A stretch of DNA of 64,000 bases from Betaproteobacteria bacterium (GTDB lineage: Bacteria; Pseudomonadota; Gammaproteobacteria; Burkholderiales; SG8-39): positions 3,667 to 67,666 of the forward strand of contig JBBINV010000011.1 in assembly GCA_037443705.1 (NCBI GenBank), written 5' to 3'. A model generated the notes under the pieces. That model saw only the letters and a program-made list of their open reading frames with translations. It was not told where the DNA came from and searched no databases. Below are positions 9,417 through 62,830 of this stretch, in pieces. The translations under genes and the position numbers were made by a program. The stretch's first letter is position 1. Each line of letters starts with the position of its first letter.

Positions 9417-9429
9417 CGCCGTATGGGCG

Positions 9430-9508
9430 GCGAAAAACCGGGACAGACCCGGATTTCCATCCGTGGCGCATTGTTCGGCCGAAATCCGGGTCTGTCCCGG
9501 TTTTTCGC
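9430..9508. repeat. Long-arm palindromic element, subtype A (AAAAACCGGGACAGACCCGG core)
   Basis: Perfect 28-bp inverted arms 9430-9457 and 9481-9508 with a 23-nt loop; ends at the base before hisG ATG 9509. Confidence 0.9.
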
Positions 9509-10153
9509 ATGAGCACCGTCGGCATCGCTCTCTCGAAGGGCCGCATCCTCGAGGAAACGGCGCCGCTGCTCGCGCGCGTCGGCATTCGCGCCAGCGAGGA
9601 TCCGGAGCGCTCGCGAAAGCTCGTGATCCCGACCGAGCGCCGTGACGTGCGGCTGATCGTGGTGCGCGCGGCCGATGCGCCGACCTACGTCCAGCGCGGC
9701 GCGGCCGATCTCGGCATCGCCGGCCGCGACGTGCTCGCCGAGCATGGCGGAGCGGGGCTGTACCAGCCGCTCGACCTCGGCATCGCGGTCTGCCGCATGA
9801 TGGTGGCGGTGCGCCGGGGTTTCGACTACACGGCCGCGGTGCGGCAGGGGGCGCGGCTGCGCGTCGCGACCAAATACGTGCAGACCACGCGCGAGCACTT
9901 CGCGGCCAAGGGCGTGCACGTCGACCTCATCCGCCTCTACGGCTCGATGGAGCTCGCACCGCTCGTCGGCCTGGCGGACGCGATCGTCGACCTCGTGTCA
10001 ACCGGCGGGACGTTGCGCGCCAACGACCTCGTGCCGGTCGAGGAGATCATGCCGGTGTCGGCGCGCCTGGTTGTCAACCAGGCGGCGCTCAAGACCAAGC
10101 GCGACGTCCTGCAGCCGATCATCGACGCCTTCGCGCGGGCGGCCCGGTCGTGA
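9509..10153 (+). CDS. hisG: ATP phosphoribosyltransferase, short form (needs HisZ, which is not in the window)
   Basis: [50 protein letters not shown]; 214 aa. Confidence 0.95.
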
Positions 10154-11430: not shown

Positions 11431-12506
11431 GCGTCGCGCAGAAGGTGATCCGGCCCGAGATCCAGGAGATGCACGCCTACGCGGTGGCCGACGCGACGGG
11501 TCTGGTCAAGCTCGACCTCATGGAGAACCCTTACGGGCTGCCCGAGGAGCTGGCGGCGGAGATCGGCCGTGTCGTGTCGCGGCTGTCCCTCAACCGCTAT
11601 CCGGTGCCGACCGCGCGGCGGCTGCGCAATCTGATCCGAGAGGTGATGCAGGTCCCGCCGGGCTGCGAGGTGCTGCTCGGCAACGGCTCCGACGAGTGCA
11701 TCCAGTACGTCACCGCGGCGATTGCGCGCGAAGGCGCGGTGGTGATGGCGCCCTCGCCCTCCTTCGCGATGTTCTCCGCGTACGCGCTCTTCTACCGCCT
11801 GCGCTTCACCGGCGTGCCCCTGCGCGAGGACTTCACGCTCGACGCCGAGGCTTTTCTCGCCGCGATGGCGAAGGACAAGCCCGCGCTCGTCTGGATCGCC
11901 TACCCCAACAACCCCACCGGCAATGCGTTCCCGGTCGGCGACATCGAGCGCATCCTGCGCGCCGCGCCCGGCCTGGTCGTCATCGACGAAGCCTATCAGC
12001 CGTTCGCGGGCGCGACCTTCATGCCGCGCCTGGCGGAGTTCGAGAACCTGGTGGTGATGCGCACCGTTTCGAAGATCGGCATGGCGGGCCTGCGCCTGGG
12101 CTACGTCTGCGGGCGGCCCGAATGGATCGAGGAGTTCAACAAGACTCGCTCGCCGTTCAACGTCAATGTCGTCACCGAGGCGATCGCGATCACGCTGCTC
12201 GAGCACAAGTCGGTGCTCGACGCGCAGGCGGCCCGGGTGCTCGCCGAGAGAGAGCGCATCCGGCCGGAGCTCGATCGCATGCCGGGCCTCACCGTCTATC
12301 CTTCGGTGGCGAACTTCTTTCTCGCGCGCGTCAAGGGCCCCGCGGGCGCCGGCGCACGCGTCTTCGAGGCGCTAAAGGCGCAGGGCGTGCTGGTGAAGAG
12401 CTTCGCGGGCGGCCCGGCGGCGCTCGAGAACTGCCTGCGGATCTCCATTGGCACGCCCGAGGAAAACCGTATACTCCTCGCAGCACTCCGCGAGGCGCTC
12501 AAATGA
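11427..12506 (+). CDS. hisC: Histidinol-phosphate aminotransferase
   Basis: ATG 11427; [37 protein letters not shown] (PLP lysine). Confidence 0.95.
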
Positions 12507-14510: not shown

Positions 14511-15265
<755 letters not shown>

Positions 15266-31955: not shown

Positions 31956-33866
31956 CTATCGGCGCGCCGCGGAAAGGCTTGAGGCGAGAAGCGCGCACAA
32001 TTCCTTCAGCCGCGCGCGCGCCGCGGCGTCCAGGCCCAGCGGGTCGAACCGGTAGCGCCGGTGCAGCCGAAGCGCCTCGTCGAACGCAGGGCCGAGCTCC
32101 GCAGGCAAGCGCGGCCGCGCGTTCGCGACCTGGAAGAACTCCGAGTCGGCGCCCGGCCAGACGCGCGGCGGCTCCTGCGCGCGCCCGGCCTCGCGCGCGA
32201 CGCGGCGTCCGCGCAGCAGCCGCCAGCCGAGGACCGCCACGAGCAGCGCAAGCGCGACGTACCAGCCGTCGCTCGCCTGGAGCTCGCCGCGCTGCGACCA
32301 GCGGAACGCCGCCCAGCGTCCGAGATCGGCGAGCTTCTGCCAGAACGGCGCGAGGCTTGCCTCTTCCTCCTGGAACCAGGAGGGCGGCGTGGTGTCGACC
32401 TCGGCCCAGCGGCTTCCGTCCCAGGCGCGCGCCCAGGCGTGGGCGTGGCGCGCGCGAACCACGTAGGCATCCTCGAGGGCGCTGTACTCCACCACCGCGA
32501 AGCCGGTCGCGTAGCGCGCAGGGATTCCCGCGGCGCGCAGCAGCAGGGTCGTCGCGGCCGCGAAATACTCGCAGTGTCCCGTGCGCGTGTTGCGCATGAA
32601 GTCGGCGAGCGGAGTCACGCCCGCGGCGGCCGGCCGCTCGCGCCAGAGCGAGTACGTAAACCCGGCGAAATGCTCGCGCACGCGGCGCAACGCTTGTTCC
32701 GCCGGCAGGCCGCGCAGCCCGAGCTCCCCGGCCACGGCATCGAATGTGGCGCGCTCGGAAGCCGGGACGGCGAGGTCCTCGGGGGCGGGACCTTCGGCGA
32801 GCTCGGCTGCGGGCGCGAGCTCCGCCTCGTACTGGATCCAGTCGCCCGGAATCTCGGCATGCACGGCGCCGAGCGAGTTGCGGCGAAGCGTGCGCGCGCC
32901 GAGCCCGGTGACGCGCGTGCTCTGCGCCGGAAGCGAGAGGAGGATCCGCCCGCGCTCGATGCGCGCCGCGATGCGCGCGGAGGCATCCGAGGGCACCGCG
33001 CCGAGCGTCCAGGAAAGACCCCCCGGATCGGGTGCGACCGGCTGCATCGGCGCGCCGCGCGCGAGCCACGTCCCGGCGACGTAGGTGTTGTAGCTCGCGC
33101 GATGCAGCAGCCGCAGCCGCGGACCTTCGGCGGGCCGCGCGTAGATGCGGAGCACGATCGCATCGAGCAGCTTCGCCCGCCCGATCGCGCCGATTTCGGT
33201 GGTCGCCCGGTACGGATCACCCGCCAGGCCGCGCAGAAACCAGTCGGCGAGCCAGGCTTCCGCCTGGTCGCGCAGCTGGACGAGGCCGATGTGGCCCGCG
33301 TACCCTCCCGCGAGCCCGGCCGCGAGCATCAGCGTCCAGAGCGCCGGATGCGCGCGCCGCGGGCGCACGGCGAAAAGGCCCCAGGCAACCGCAACCGCCA
33401 CGCCGCCGAAGTAGGCCGGGCCCTGCGCGTTCGCGATGCCCGCGGCGATCAGGACGAGCGCCACGTACACCGGGCTCGTGTCGACGAGGGGATCGCGAAT
33501 CGCGGGGTCGCGGCGCTTCATCTTGCGCAGATAGCGGAACAGCGCCGAAAGCGGGATGCGGCGCGCCTGCGACACCATCTGCGCGAGCAGAATCGGCGCG
33601 AGCGCCACGGGCAGCCACTGGAATGCGCCCAGGATCCCCTGAGCGATCCCGCGGTTCACCGCGAGCACCGCGGCGAGCCCGGTGAACAGGATCGTGCACA
33701 GGTCCGCGATGCGCGAGTGCTCCGCGGCGCCGAGGTCGAAGCGCAGGCGCGTGCGCCGCGCTGCCTCCACCGCGACCGCGAGGGCCGCCGCCGGGAGCCA
33801 GTTGCCGGTCTGCCAGCCCCAGAAAAGAAGCGCTGCGCCGGCGAGATAGGGCGGCACCGAGATCAT
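31956..33866 (-). CDS. Membrane-anchored transglutaminase-like protein (TgpA-like)
   Basis: ATG 33866; multi-TM N-terminus; catalytic triad motifs GHCEYFA, HAW, VDTTP. Confidence 0.88.
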   Translation of the reverse strand: MISVPPYLAGAALLFWGWQTGNWLPAAALAVAVEAARRTRLRFDLGAAEHSRIADLCTILFTGLAAVLAVNRGIAQGILGAFQWLPVALAPILLAQMVSQARRIPLSALFRYLRKMKRRDPAIRDPLVDTSPVYVALVLIAAGIANAQGPAYFGGVAVAVAWGLFAVRPRRAHPALWTLMLAAGLAGGYAGHIGLVQLRDQAEAWLADWFLRGLAGDPYRATTEIGAIGRAKLLDAIVLRIYARPAEGPRLRLLHRASYNTYVAGTWLARGAPMQPVAPDPGGLSWTLGAVPSDASARIAARIERGRILLSLPAQSTRVTGLGARTLRRNSLGAVHAEIPGDWIQYEAELAPAAELAEGPAPEDLAVPASERATFDAVAGELGLRGLPAEQALRRVREHFAGFTYSLWRERPAAAGVTPLADFMRNTRTGHCEYFAAATTLLLRAAGIPARYATGFAVVEYSALEDAYVVRARHAHAWARAWDGSRWAEVDTTPPSWFQEEEASLAPFWQKLADLGRWAAFRWSQRGELQASDGWYVALALLVAVLGWRLLRGRRVAREAGRAQEPPRVWPGADSEFFQVANARPRLPAELGPAFDEALRLHRRYRFDPLGLDAAARARLKELCALLASSLSAARR

Positions 33867-51661: not shown

Positions 51662-54118
51662 TCACCGAGCCGGAACGAGCCGCAGCGTCTTGTGCGGCTG
51701 CGAATCCAGCGTCTTGCGGTCGGTGGCCATGCGGATGTACTCGCCCTTCGCCCAGGCCTCGGTGAACGCGGCGTAGTGCGGCGAGAGGATGTTGCCCGAC
51801 TGTCCGCCGGAGTGGATGAAGAGCGAGTTCTCCAGGTCGGAGAGATCGTAGATCGCGCGCAGGCTCGCGGCGTGGCGGTTGGCGAACGGGCGCTCGTCGT
51901 CGTGGAAGTCCTTGCGGCCCACGTTTATGGTGTAGGTGTCGCCCGGCGTGGGCGCGGTAATGTCGAACAGGCGCGCCAGGAGCGGCTGGCGACCGAACGG
52001 CCGGTGCTCGAGCCGAGCGAAGTGCGCCTCGCCCCAGCGCCAGCGCGAGCTGTCCGCGCCGTAGCGCTGCGTCAGGTCCTTGAGCGCGGCCTCCAGCGAC
52101 AGCGCGAGCAGTTCCTCGCAGGTTTCCACGGCCGGCGTGCGCAGATCGTCGCACCAGCGTGCAGCCTCGCCGTTCCCCGCGAGCACCGTTGCGACGAGCG
52201 GGGCGCGCGGCGCCCAGTTGGCGCGAAACGCTTCGCCCAGCTCGTCGGCATAGAGCGCGCGCGTGAGCTCCCGCCACCACGCCCAGGCTATGACGGGTTC
52301 GGCGCGCCCCGGCGACATCGTCCCGTCCCATTTGGCGAGCATCGCGAGCGCCTTGCGCGCCTCCTCGCTCCTCGGGCGCGTCCCAAGGAGGCGGGGGAGT
52401 GACTCGCGCATCGCAAGCGACACGACATCCGCCTGCATGCGCGCGAAGCTCGCGACCGAGTGCTTGGGCGCCGCCTCGAGGAGTTCCGCGATGCGGTTTG
52501 CGCGATACGGAGGCTGCCATTCGCTGGTGAGGTAGTGCGCGTAGCCCGGCGGCGTGATTCGCTCGTTCGCCGTGAGAATCCGGCCGCTCGACGGGTTGTA
52601 CGTTCGCGGCAGCTCTTCGAACGGGATCCATCCCGCCCAGTCGTATCTCGCGTCCCAGCCCGGCGCGGGTGCGAGGCCCTTCAAGTCGTTCTCGGGCTTT
52701 CGCACCGGCACGCGCCCGGCGGCGATGTAGCCGATGTTGCCCTCGACGTCGGCGTAGACCATGTTCTGCTGCGGGACGTGGAAGTCGCGCGCCGCGGCGA
52801 GGAACCCTTCCCAGTCGCGCGCGCGCGCGAGCTTGTGGGCGGCCTGCAGCGTCTTGTCGTCCTCGAGCAGCGCGGTCCACGCGAACGCGAGCACGTAGCC
52901 GCGCGGCGCGAGCTCCTGCGCGCTTCGCAGCACGTCCGAGATCACGGGACCGTGGCGGGAGACGCGCACGCGCAGGCGCTCGTCGGGTGCGCCCTTTACC
53001 TTGAGAGTTTCCTCGATCACCTGGAATGGCCGCGGGCCCTCGGGCGTGACGTAGCCGCCCGCCGCGTCGAGCTTCTCGAGGTACAGGTCCTGCACGTCCG
53101 GCCCGGTGTTGGTGAAGCCCCAGGCGATGCGGTCGTTCCTCCCGAGCACAATCGCCGGCACCCCGGGCAGCGTCGCACCGATCACGTCGGTGCCGGGAAC
53201 CGAAAGGTGCGCGAAATACCACACTGGCGGCGCGGTGAGGCCGAGGTGCGGGTCGTTTGCGAGCAGCGGCTTGCCCGTGACGCTGCGCTCGCCCGAAACG
53301 ACCCAGTTGTTCGAGCCGATTCCTTCGCCGTCGCCGAGGAAATCCGGAAAAACCGGGACAGACCCGGTTTTCGCGGTTGGCTGTTCGGAAAACCGGGTCT
53401 GTCCCGGTTTTTCCTCCGCCAGCTGCACCGCCTCACGCTCGAGCCGGCCGTAGAGCGACTTCAGGTCCGCGATCTCGGGAGGCGGCTCGCCGGGATAGGG
53501 AGCGATGAACTCGTGGATGCGCGCGAGCGGCAGCGTGCGCGCAAGGCGCATCCGGAGGAGCTCATTCCTCCAGTTGCCGCCCAGATCCCAGGCCATCATC
53601 TTGACCCAGGCGGCGGAATCGGCGGGCGTCCAGCGCTCGGGGCGCGCGCCGGTGAGCCAGAACTCGGGCGGCAGCACGGGGTCGGCGGCGAGAAACGCGT
53701 TGACTCCGCGAGCGTAGGCCTCGAGCAGCTGCCGGGTCTCGGCGTCGGCCTGGCGAAGGTTCGCTTCGGCTGCGCGGCGCACGCCGAGCGTGCGCAGGAA
53801 CCGGTCGGTCTCGCGCGCGCCCGGCCCCAGGATCTCCGCGAGGCGCCCCGCCGCGATCCTCCGGTTCATCTCCATCTGCCAGAGCCGGTCCTGCGCGTGC
53901 GCGTAGCCGAGCGCGAAGAGCGCGTCTTCGAGCGTCTGCGCGCGGATGTGCGGGATGCCGTAGCGGTCGCGCCGGATCTCGGCCGGGGCGCCGAGGCCGT
54001 GGATCCGTACCTCGCCTTCGACGCGCGGTAGCGACTGGCGAAGATAGAGGTAGCCCGCGCTCACGGCGAGCGCGACCCCGAGCACCAGCGCGAACAAGCC
54101 CCGGACGAGCAGCCTCAC
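51662..54118 (-). CDS. Penicillin acylase / AHL acylase family Ntn-hydrolase
   Basis: GTG 54118; N-terminal anchor; RD.YGIPHI.A; GYAHAQDRLWQME; nucleophile G-SNNWVVSG (Ser codon 53314-53312); LANDPHL; GQSGN. Confidence 0.92.
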   Translation of the reverse strand: MRLLVRGLFALVLGVALAVSAGYLYLRQSLPRVEGEVRIHGLGAPAEIRRDRYGIPHIRAQTLEDALFALGYAHAQDRLWQMEMNRRIAAGRLAEILGPGARETDRFLRTLGVRRAAEANLRQADAETRQLLEAYARGVNAFLAADPVLPPEFWLTGARPERWTPADSAAWVKMMAWDLGGNWRNELLRMRLARTLPLARIHEFIAPYPGEPPPEIADLKSLYGRLEREAVQLAEEKPGQTRFSEQPTAKTGSVPVFPDFLGDGEGIGSNNWVVSGERSVTGKPLLANDPHLGLTAPPVWYFAHLSVPGTDVIGATLPGVPAIVLGRNDRIAWGFTNTGPDVQDLYLEKLDAAGGYVTPEGPRPFQVIEETLKVKGAPDERLRVRVSRHGPVISDVLRSAQELAPRGYVLAFAWTALLEDDKTLQAAHKLARARDWEGFLAAARDFHVPQQNMVYADVEGNIGYIAAGRVPVRKPENDLKGLAPAPGWDARYDWAGWIPFEELPRTYNPSSGRILTANERITPPGYAHYLTSEWQPPYRANRIAELLEAAPKHSVASFARMQADVVSLAMRESLPRLLGTRPRSEEARKALAMLAKWDGTMSPGRAEPVIAWAWWRELTRALYADELGEAFRANWAPRAPLVATVLAGNGEAARWCDDLRTPAVETCEELLALSLEAALKDLTQRYGADSSRWRWGEAHFARLEHRPFGRQPLLARLFDITAPTPGDTYTINVGRKDFHDDERPFANRHAASLRAIYDLSDLENSLFIHSGGQSGNILSPHYAAFTEAWAKGEYIRMATDRKTLDSQPHKTLRLVPAR
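53346..53414. repeat. Long-arm palindromic element, subtype A, in-frame inside the acylase gene
   Basis: Perfect 27-bp arms 53346-53372 and 53388-53414 with a 15-nt loop; 69 bp equals 23 codons. Confidence 0.92.
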
Positions 54119-54214
54119 GGCCGGGAGAATACCCTTTTCCCGGTTCGTTCCTCGTATGCGGCAGTGCCGCATTTCTGTTATAACCGGCCGGTTACCACGG
54201 CAGGGGAAGCTGCG

Positions 54215-62776: not shown

Positions 62777-62830
62777 CGAAAAAAAACCGGGACAGACCCG
62801 GTTTTCGCCGGGTCTGTCCGGATTTTTCGA
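62776..62830. repeat. Long-arm palindromic element, subtype A (short loop)
   Basis: TCGAAAAAAAACCGGGACAGACCCGG-TTTTCG-CCGGGTCTGTCCGGATTTTTCGA; fills the whole gap between the TetR stop and the FAH start. Confidence 0.85.

Follow-up and report, generated by a model that had tools for sequence, protein, structure and literature searches.

How does a 69-nt palindrome come to lie in frame within the coding sequence of a conserved enzyme, and how did the gene survive it? The palindrome in question (53346-53414) is found in a 64,000-nt stretch of betaproteobacterial DNA, referred to here as the window, inside a gene for a penicillin-acylase-family precursor (Ntn hydrolase, MEROPS S45-type) that occupies 51662-54172 of the minus strand and encodes 836 amino acids from the ATG at 54172; the GTG at 54118, the point at which most homologues start, may be an alternative start. 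The palindrome is a REPIN-type doublet composed of two inverted copies of a REP module, GAAAAACCGGGACAGACCCGGTTTTC. Arm 1 (53346-53372, plus strand) forms a small hairpin of its own, AAAACCGGG-ACAGA-CCCGGTTTT, and is separated from arm 2, the inverted module (53388-53414, minus strand), by a 15-nt loop (53373-53387) that is found in no other copy. Both arms are 27 nt long and 100% complementary, and 100 shuffles produced 0 matches. In the mRNA the palindrome corresponds to a hairpin of -53.7 kcal/mol (z = -10.2). Read in the frame of the gene, it contributes 23 codons, EKPGQTRFSEQPTAKTGSVPVFP, which are residues 254-276 of the protein (window 53413-53345, counted from the ATG at 54172), and ten residues, DFLGDGEGIG, separate this peptide from Ser287, the Ser of the motif SNNW. 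An earlier note on this DNA had described an in-frame palindrome with perfect arms that ends 10 codons before that Ser, and both statements hold. No frame of the REP module, on either strand, contains a stop codon, and the inserted length is divisible by three, hence the reading frame of the acylase stays open.

In a profile search the reading frame of the host gene matches PF01804 (Penicil_amidase) almost end to end (profile positions 1-673 of 675; E 7.9e-246), and its closest structures are the D-succinylase 7EBY (E 2e-84) followed by the glutaryl-7-ACA acylase 4HSR. The precursor has the order N-terminal membrane or signal helix, alpha part, linker and beta part. Matches to solved alpha chains stop at query residues 188-215, and matches to beta chains (4HSR, 1GK9, 1FM2 and others) start at residue 287, in agreement with the enzyme family named in the earlier note. 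Ser287 (codon at 53312-53314, minus strand) is therefore the predicted catalytic nucleophile and residue 1 of the mature beta subunit, and it is invariant across alignments A1 and A2 and in 53 homologues. Codons 278-286 (FLGDGEGIG, 53315-53341, minus strand) encode original linker residues N-terminal to the scissile Gly286-Ser287 bond. An AF2 model built from the 53-sequence alignment, which replaced an earlier AlphaFold run with 24 close homologues (pLDDT 48), has a pLDDT of 89.5 and a pTM of 0.89. In this model the final helix of the alpha subunit spans residues 237-253, the linker extends from there to Ser287, and residues 258-284 form the sole long segment of low confidence. Compared with the orthologue L081, the gene has a dN/dS of 0.156 at a dS of 0.65, with alpha and beta parts alike, a pattern indicative of purifying selection. 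The score against the PvdQ equivalog is 84 bits versus a cut-off of 950. Judged by its sequence, the host protein is an intact penicillin-acylase-family Ntn hydrolase, and by analogy with its relatives and from the model we infer that the precursor would cleave itself with release of a spacer.

Comparison with orthologues reveals the empty site. The orthologue L082 (85% identity to the window acylase over the trimmed alignment used for the tree) has QLAQ|FAPDNEGSGSNNW and lacks 24 codons exactly at the insertion point; relative to it, the window gene carries a net insertion of 72 nt, EKPGQTRFSEQPTAKTGSVPVFPD (53342-53413, minus strand, codons 254-277). A gap of about 23 residues in a close homologue had been anticipated in the earlier note, and 9/9 orthologues of the same genus are free of any repeat. 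The same region of the acylase is occupied in other lineages by other repeats. REP-type hairpins are located in the linker zone of 15/81 orthologous loci, represent at least eight sequence types, and come from a minimum of six clades of the tree. Where the arms reach 22 nt or more, the inverted repeat always lies from -131 to -6 nt relative to the Ser codon (8/8), and no such repeat was detected in the remaining ~188 kb of acylase coding sequence (2.4-kb genes). The inserts vary widely in sequence, reading frame and length, and in L018 and L081 a second copy of the insert's own repeat family is found elsewhere in the locus. That the insertion survived because it lies in a disposable segment, as the earlier note proposed, is strongly backed by this distribution and by the low-confidence stretch of the model.

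The acylase palindrome belongs to the main REP family of the genome, the core of which, CCGGGACAGACCCGG, is present at ~46 loci as 28 doublets and 18 singles. All 28 doublets are convergent (ACAGA...TCTGT), and their loops, which range from 4 to 45 nt, vary in sequence and length among copies. The acylase copy is the sole internal in-CDS copy in the whole genome. Two further candidates were rejected: 'KPGQTLFSF' on contig C59 looks like a native motif of its host enzyme, presumably the conserved motif of alanine dehydrogenase, and a match on contig C104 looks like a chance match. Overlapping stop/start operon junctions hold about half of the genome's doublets.

Two other copies lie in the window, both described in the earlier note as intergenic repeats of the same element, at 9430 and 62776. 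Related copies are indeed present. The first, of the ATTTC sub-type (9431-9507), lies between murA and hisG and retains both arms with 2 mismatches each; however, it falls within a mini-ORF of 29 codons (9423-9512), the TGA of which shares bases with the hisG ATG at 9509. The other (62780-62830) is degraded and is situated between two minus-strand genes as read from flanking sequence; its left arm (62780-62806) is matched with 2 mismatches, and its right arm is more degraded and unmatched. Two Y1_Tnp genes in the genome score above the Pfam cut-off. One, at C27:~32622-33312, has the main-family hairpin on both sides in inverted orientation, GAAAAACCGGGACAGACCCGGCTTTCC and GAAAACCGGGTCTGTCCCGGTTTCTC, and the other, on contig C19, is flanked by the genome's second repeat family. 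Against REP_Tyr_transpos (NF047646) the Y1 proteins give E values of 1.2e-16 and 2.1e-22, at 60.9 and 79.6 bits versus a cut-off of 80. The RAYT-like Y1 (HUH) transposase gene on C27 is likely the master locus of the main family. Set against the corresponding empty sites of same-genus genomes, the copies at hemE and hisG each display a target duplication of ~9 bp; a third such comparison failed, as the DctM orthologue is missing from the same-genus genomes.

The explanation that we regard as highly probable is that a REPIN inserted into the unstructured linker of the acylase. The main REP hairpin of the genome, in two inverted copies and with the C27 RAYT-like gene as its likely master, would have added a net 72 nt (24 codons) to the linker DNA of a periplasmic acylase, between helix 237-253 and Ser287. 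The gene would have survived because, the linker apart, the precursor has no long unstructured stretch. Penicillin-acylase-family enzymes cut themselves at Gly|Ser, with a second cut that frees the spacer in characterised homologues, and the linker would therefore be almost free to vary in sequence and length. In homologous acylases two cleavage sites free a spacer, and a cephalosporin acylase with a shortened spacer still cleaves itself, whereas in MacQ the spacer remains visible within the mature enzyme (PMC5566955). We infer that the window protein is made and cleaves itself, and that the REP-encoded peptide is either trimmed off or left as a floppy tail of the alpha subunit; depending on the location of the second cleavage site, it may stay on that subunit. 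Since relatives hold other repeats in the same place, the linker appears to tolerate inserted DNA about as well as intergenic space does. A hairpin of this stability within an open reading frame might be expected to carry a cost, which we count against this explanation.

Tolerance need not be all there is to it. Strong palindromes number 8 in ~10.5 kb of linker zone versus 18 in ~226 kb of flanks that are mostly coding, a density ~10x that of the flanks overall and, at a guess, similar to that of intergenic DNA alone. Such a density, reached despite the requirement to stay in frame, suggests that passive tolerance may be an incomplete explanation. The linker DNA, or an earlier REP remnant within it, could instead be a target that attracts REP and REPIN insertions, with elements replacing one another. 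The window gene (WIN) and L081, sisters with 95% SH-aLRT support, hold doublets of two different families at one codon boundary, between QLAE and F(L)GDGEG in both genes, and these are not relics of one shared insertion because a dS of 0.65 separates genes in which the window copy retains perfect 27-nt arms. In the clade formed by L020, L038, L018 and L026 every member has a doublet, and three sequence types are represented. Next to the inserts of WIN and L081 there are also partial copies of element ends, GGATTTCC after the former and GATTTCC CCGATTCTCC at the latter; GGATTTCC is either what is left of a family-2 element or a second, incomplete copy of the inserted element's own terminus. However, the insertion point shifts by several codons among clades, lying after FAP in L003 and abutting the scissile bond in L026 and L038, the empty-site sequences contain no obvious hairpin, and the acylase sites share no target motif and show no clear target duplication, just a weak CGGA(G/T) repeat being visible at the window site. 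A targeted hot spot is thus possible but doubtful, and it can coexist with tolerance of the linker.

A bolder and equally tentative proposal is that this REPIN class, with its RAYT-like (TIRYT-type) gene, is adapted to translated but dispensable sequence. The in-frame mini-ORFs that its doublets form at operon junctions (...F-F-A-stop) could relay ribosomes from one gene to the next, the acylase linker would be another habitat of this kind, repeatedly recolonised across Burkholderiales, and occupancy would reflect targeting or positive retention and not chance. Searches of the literature for target duplication by REPINs, or for REPINs in translational coupling, returned nothing relevant.

Improbable, in our opinion, is that the insert is useful to its host, whether as an mRNA hairpin, placed between the alpha and beta coding parts, that slows ribosomes or helps to stabilise or process the transcript, or as a Gly/Pro/Ser/Thr-rich peptide that tunes autoprocessing. 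The stability of the hairpin fits such a role, as does the retention of near-perfect arms in many lineages, but the youth of the copies would account just as well for perfect arms, and a simple terminator scan left the site unflagged. REP-encoded residues occupy P3-P10 of the cleavage site in L026, L035, L037 and L038, where they replace the original linker; nevertheless, most orthologues, among them every one from the same genus, lack any repeat, and the inserts have little in common in sequence, frame or length. Finally, the genome is a metagenome-assembled draft of 121 contigs (3.6 Mb) and Logan unitigs end within the palindrome, but a repeat-induced misjoin that placed the REPIN between two gene halves is almost certainly not the answer, given that two Logan pieces (52900-53413 and 53385-53900, from a separate assembly, likely of the source run and possibly of the same reads) share 29 nt and agree with the sequence of both junctions without mismatch, that the frame is unbroken with both flanks colinear with orthologues, and that the same kind of insert occupies the same place in independent assemblies of other samples. 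Contigs of related runs contained no empty-site allele of the acylase, and a search for RNA runs with the acylase region returned none, the matching runs all being metagenomic DNA.

In-frame REP insertions were already known, and it is the recurrence at one site that is new. Insertion of REPINs into the acylase linker amounts to a natural experiment on the variable part of an Ntn-hydrolase precursor, in which inserts of 10-40 residues, acquired independently many times, are confined to the ~40 codons before the nucleophile. A linker region that tolerates such inserts would be useful in industrial acylase engineering, for example in linker design or the choice of tag insertion sites. Furthermore, 'extragenic' REP and REPIN elements can turn into linker-coding sequence, in several lineages placing REP-derived residues directly beside the scissile bond, and the filled and empty sites with a ~9 bp duplication bear on how REPINs move.

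Among known systems, the acylase palindrome belongs with the REP/REPIN elements that accompany a RAYT-like gene, with the Rickettsia elements only an analogy. Like REP/REPIN-RAYT systems, the family consists of a short hairpin repeat in tens of copies, mostly extragenic (here one is intragenic), its inverted doublets form one long hairpin, and a Y1/HUH transposase gene lies between inverted copies of the same repeat. Unlike them, the main-family module lacks the GTAG / CGTC end tag, and two filled-versus-empty comparisons show the ~9 bp target duplication. Both Y1 proteins match REP_Tyr_transpos but score below NCBIfam's curated cut-off. To our knowledge, IS200/IS605-type transposition makes no target duplication. 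Within the RAYTs, the TIRYT/TIRtron class has flanking inverted repeats with a GGGGWSAS motif (Di Nocera et al. 2013, PMC3733652); the genome's second family, GGGGTCAGAC..., fits this motif exactly and the main family, CGGGACAGAC..., with one mismatch.

The family also resembles bacterial MITEs (such as Correia/NEMIS, RUP and Nezha), which are non-autonomous, have inverted repeats and can fuse to or extend ORFs; the acylase copy has inverted arms, and a ~9 bp target duplication is seen at two other copies. It differs from them in that the sole gene seen flanked by the repeat encodes a Y1/HUH transposase, not a DDE-type parent with matching ends, and in that every arm of the REPIN forms a hairpin by itself. 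On the side of the host, the protein shares with Ntn-hydrolase acylases (penicillin G acylase, cephalosporin/glutaryl-7-ACA acylase, MacQ, PvdQ, 7EBY) a single precursor chain and a catalytic Ser that is predicted here to become the N-terminus of the beta subunit, and the linker upstream of that Ser is variable and tolerant in length in such acylases (PMC5566955). It differs from them in that its best PDB relative, 7EBY, matches only at E 2e-84, in that its PvdQ equivalog score is far below the cut-off, and in that it belongs to a subfamily uncharacterised in substrate and processing.

Further parallels are the intragenic REPs (Di Nocera et al. 2013) and the Rickettsia palindromic elements (RPE), in which a palindromic repeat is likewise translated in frame in a functional gene, dimers encode 20-30 residues, and survival is ascribed to a fold-neutral location. 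The RPE are set apart by the bacterial class of their host, and our element by its tie to its own RAYT-like gene. From both, the present case differs in its sequence family and in its host, an uncultured Burkholderiales-like betaproteobacterium; moreover, the site is a pro-peptide-like linker beside an autoproteolytic bond, and in orthologues that one site has been occupied repeatedly by different families.

The palindrome at 53346-53414 of the window is 69 nt long, with two perfectly complementary 27-nt arms separated by 15 nt, and shuffled sequence yielded no match like these arms. It lies within a minus-strand open reading frame that matches Pfam Penicil_amidase from end to end (E 7.9e-246) and, numbering from the ATG at 54172, encodes EKPGQTRFSEQPTAKTGSVPVFP at positions 254-276 of the protein. 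Ten residues separate this peptide from the Ser of GSNNW (Ser287). The arms, the reading frame and the residue count thus confirm the observation in the earlier note that an in-frame palindrome of 23 codons ends ten residues before the Ser of SNNW. Two Logan contigs, taken from a run with 99% of the words of the region, match both insertion junctions perfectly, and their overlap falls within the right arm; therefore, we take the insertion to be real sequence and not a misjoin. The ATG at 54172, the first of the frame, gives an 18-residue N-terminal extension that is absent from homologues. Most homologues start at the position of a GTG at 54118 (V/M-RLLVRGLFALVLG...), which by this alignment is probably the true start.

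Residue 287 corresponds to the start of the solved beta chains of glutaryl-7-ACA acylase, penicillin G acylase and cephalosporin acylase, and alpha-chain matches stop at residues 188-215; of the solved structures, D-succinylase 7EBY is the closest. In an AlphaFold model built from 53 homologues (mean pLDDT 89.5, pTM 0.89), residues 258-284 form the sole long stretch predicted with low confidence, reaching from directly after the last helix of the alpha part (237-253) up to the Gly-Ser bond. A previous model, whose alignment was shallow, could not be used. Characterized homologues have a precursor with two cleavage sites and release the spacer, a cephalosporin acylase with a shortened spacer retains self-cleavage, and the spacer is still visible in the mature MacQ particle (PMC5566955). 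Given the low-confidence stretch and these features of homologues, "disposable" is a fair description of the linker segment, and the peptide may be either released or kept as a tail of the alpha subunit.

In the genome (3.6 Mb, 68.6% G+C, 121 contigs), of which the window is C11:3667-67666, the core of the repeat, CCGGGACAGACCCGG, is embedded in GAAAAA...TTTTC and found at ~46 loci, as 28 doublets and 18 singles. Each module is a small hairpin by itself, and all doublets are convergent, with loops unrelated in sequence and length. The acylase copy is the only copy of this main family internal to a gene. Two RAYT-like genes score above the Pfam Y1_Tnp cut-off, both outside the window, within which no transposase lies near the repeats. 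One (C27:~32558-33338, including flanks) has a main-family module on both sides in inverted orientation, and the other (C19:~11508-12322) is flanked by an inverted second family, GGGGTCAGACTCGACTTTCC; the palindromic GGGGTCAGACCCC core has about ten further matches in the genome. Both proteins match the NCBIfam REP-associated tyrosine transposase model below its curated cut-off. This layout is a REP/REPIN-RAYT arrangement, more precisely of the TIRYT/TIRtron type, whose GGGGWSAS-like core (Di Nocera et al. 2013; PMC3733652) the core described here resembles.

The orthologue L082, with 85% identity in the trimmed alignment used for the tree, has an empty site, reading ...VQLAQ followed directly by FAPDNEGSGSNNW. 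Exactly at the VQLAQ boundary, the gene in the window is longer by 24 codons (72 nt, 53342-53413), in line with the predicted gap of ~23 residues in a close homologue. All nine same-genus species representatives also lack any repeat there, with EDAxRLLAxAPGEPPDG as their ordinary linker. L081, a sister gene in conserved synteny, is 84% identical to the window gene, and both have PHB-depolymerase and LysR neighbors. Between the two, dN/dS is 0.156, with similar values for the alpha part and the beta part, at a dS of 0.65, and the gene is under purifying selection. Sequence comparison indicates that the insert must be much younger than this split, because dS is 0.65 and yet the 27-nt arms are perfect and identical to the common form of the family. 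At the same codon boundary, L081 has a doublet (GGGGTCAGACaCGACT... / ...AGTCGAGTCTGACCCC) of the second family, that of the C19 gene, and another copy lies 8 kb away on the same contig.

Scanning 81 orthologous loci for REP-type hairpins revealed 15 with such an insert in the linker, of at least eight sequence types that include GGGGACAGACCTCAT, GGGGACAGTCCCC, GGGGACGTACCCC, CCGGGTCAGACCCCGG and clusters of GGGGTCAGACCCC. Beyond these 15, a same-family genome provides one more case (L095, G013:C99), and peptide sequence suggests three others (P0018, P0023 and P0026). All eight inverted repeats with arms of at least 22 nt lie at -131 to -6 nt of the Ser codon, and the rest of the acylase coding sequence (~188 kb) has none; the flanks of these loci hold 18 strong inverted repeats in ~226 kb. 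In a maximum-likelihood tree, insert-bearing genes fall into at least six separate clades, within which sisters often have different repeat families in the linker. At L026, L035, L037 and L038, REP-encoded residues stop two to four residues short of the scissile bond, and therefore the repeat has become the linker there. At L018, a second copy of the spacer family directly follows the stop codon. Several other uncultured Burkholderiales-type genomes (L095, L011, L018, L020, L026, L037 and L038) have REPIN families of their own with a GGGG(A/T)C(A/T)G core, copies of which occur in the acylase linker and in neighboring intergenic DNA. Repeats of this class are widespread across the Burkholderiales-type group.

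The simplest reading is that of the earlier note, and we hold it with considerable confidence: a REPIN inserted in frame and survived in an unconstrained linker. Insertions would happen anywhere, and the survivors would be those that are in frame, free of stops and in this segment. Both the confinement of recurrence to the linker zone and the low-confidence stretch of the model support survival in a disposable segment. Targeting, or attraction of one REP by another, may add to passive tolerance. We consider this rather doubtful, and retain it because different families hold the same boundary in sister lineages and because the linker zone, with 8 strong palindromes in ~10.5 kb, has about ten times the density of the flanks overall; our guess is that intergenic DNA alone would have a similar density, even though linker insertions must keep the frame. 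An adaptive role of the mRNA hairpin or of the encoded peptide is improbable. The hairpin is strong (-53.7 kcal/mol; z = -5.6 in wider context), and a simple terminator scan did not flag the element.

Many other doublets of the main family lie in translated-looking sequence. A script assigned 12 of the 28 to a junction pattern, and two more (C46:7328 and C58:2877) appear to fit by eye, without confirmation by the script; including these two, about half of the doublets are at operon junctions. An ATG or GTG precedes the element by at most 15 nt, the element is open throughout in the frame that the acylase also uses (EKPGQTR...), and the resulting mini-ORF of 22-34 codons, with a peptide ending ...N-P-G-L-S-R-F-F-A, closes with a TGA overlapping the downstream start codon (ATGA or GTGA). 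Nine of these mini-ORFs also have their first ATG overlapping the stop of the upstream gene. One is in the window (9423-9512), and the others are at C4:86628, C6:82819, C9:60594, C12:47132, C15:6508, C15:11239, C36:23180, C52:1172, C55:19839, C66:14930 and C89:1515. The start of the mini-ORF is a duplicated copy of the downstream start codon. At the hemE junction, same-genus genomes with an empty site (L133-L141) read CTGCTCGCGTGAGCGCGCTG, and the filled site (L132, C66:~14921-15015) reads CTGCTC-GCATGAGCG-AC[REPIN]GCATGAGCG-CGCTG, the 9-bp duplication being the overlapping stop/start. The murA-hisG junction (window 9417-9519, compared with L109-L119) has the same kind of duplication, about 9 bp and GCATGGGCA-like. 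These flanking repeats imply an insertion mechanism that duplicates its target. From its sequence, the mini-ORF resembles a relay by which adjacent genes could stay translationally coupled despite the inserted hairpin. A further doublet (C29:21680-21735) directly follows an ATGA junction in frame with the downstream ORF, presumably an lnt-like membrane protein from its N-terminal sequence alone, and constitutes an N-terminal extension of 20 residues or else a 5' leader.

A limited literature search found no account of different REP families repeatedly colonizing the same orthologous position, here the autoproteolytic linker of an Ntn hydrolase, nor of junction mini-ORFs with target duplication. 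We know of no target duplication on transposition of the IS200/IS605 relatives of RAYTs, and in this respect the REPINs described here, with ~9 bp duplicated at two junctions, differ from that type of transposition. In-frame palindromic repeats in genes are already known: the acylase insert resembles the Rickettsia palindromic elements in this respect, and intragenic REPs occur in several phyla, where dimers encode 20-30 residues (PMC3733652).
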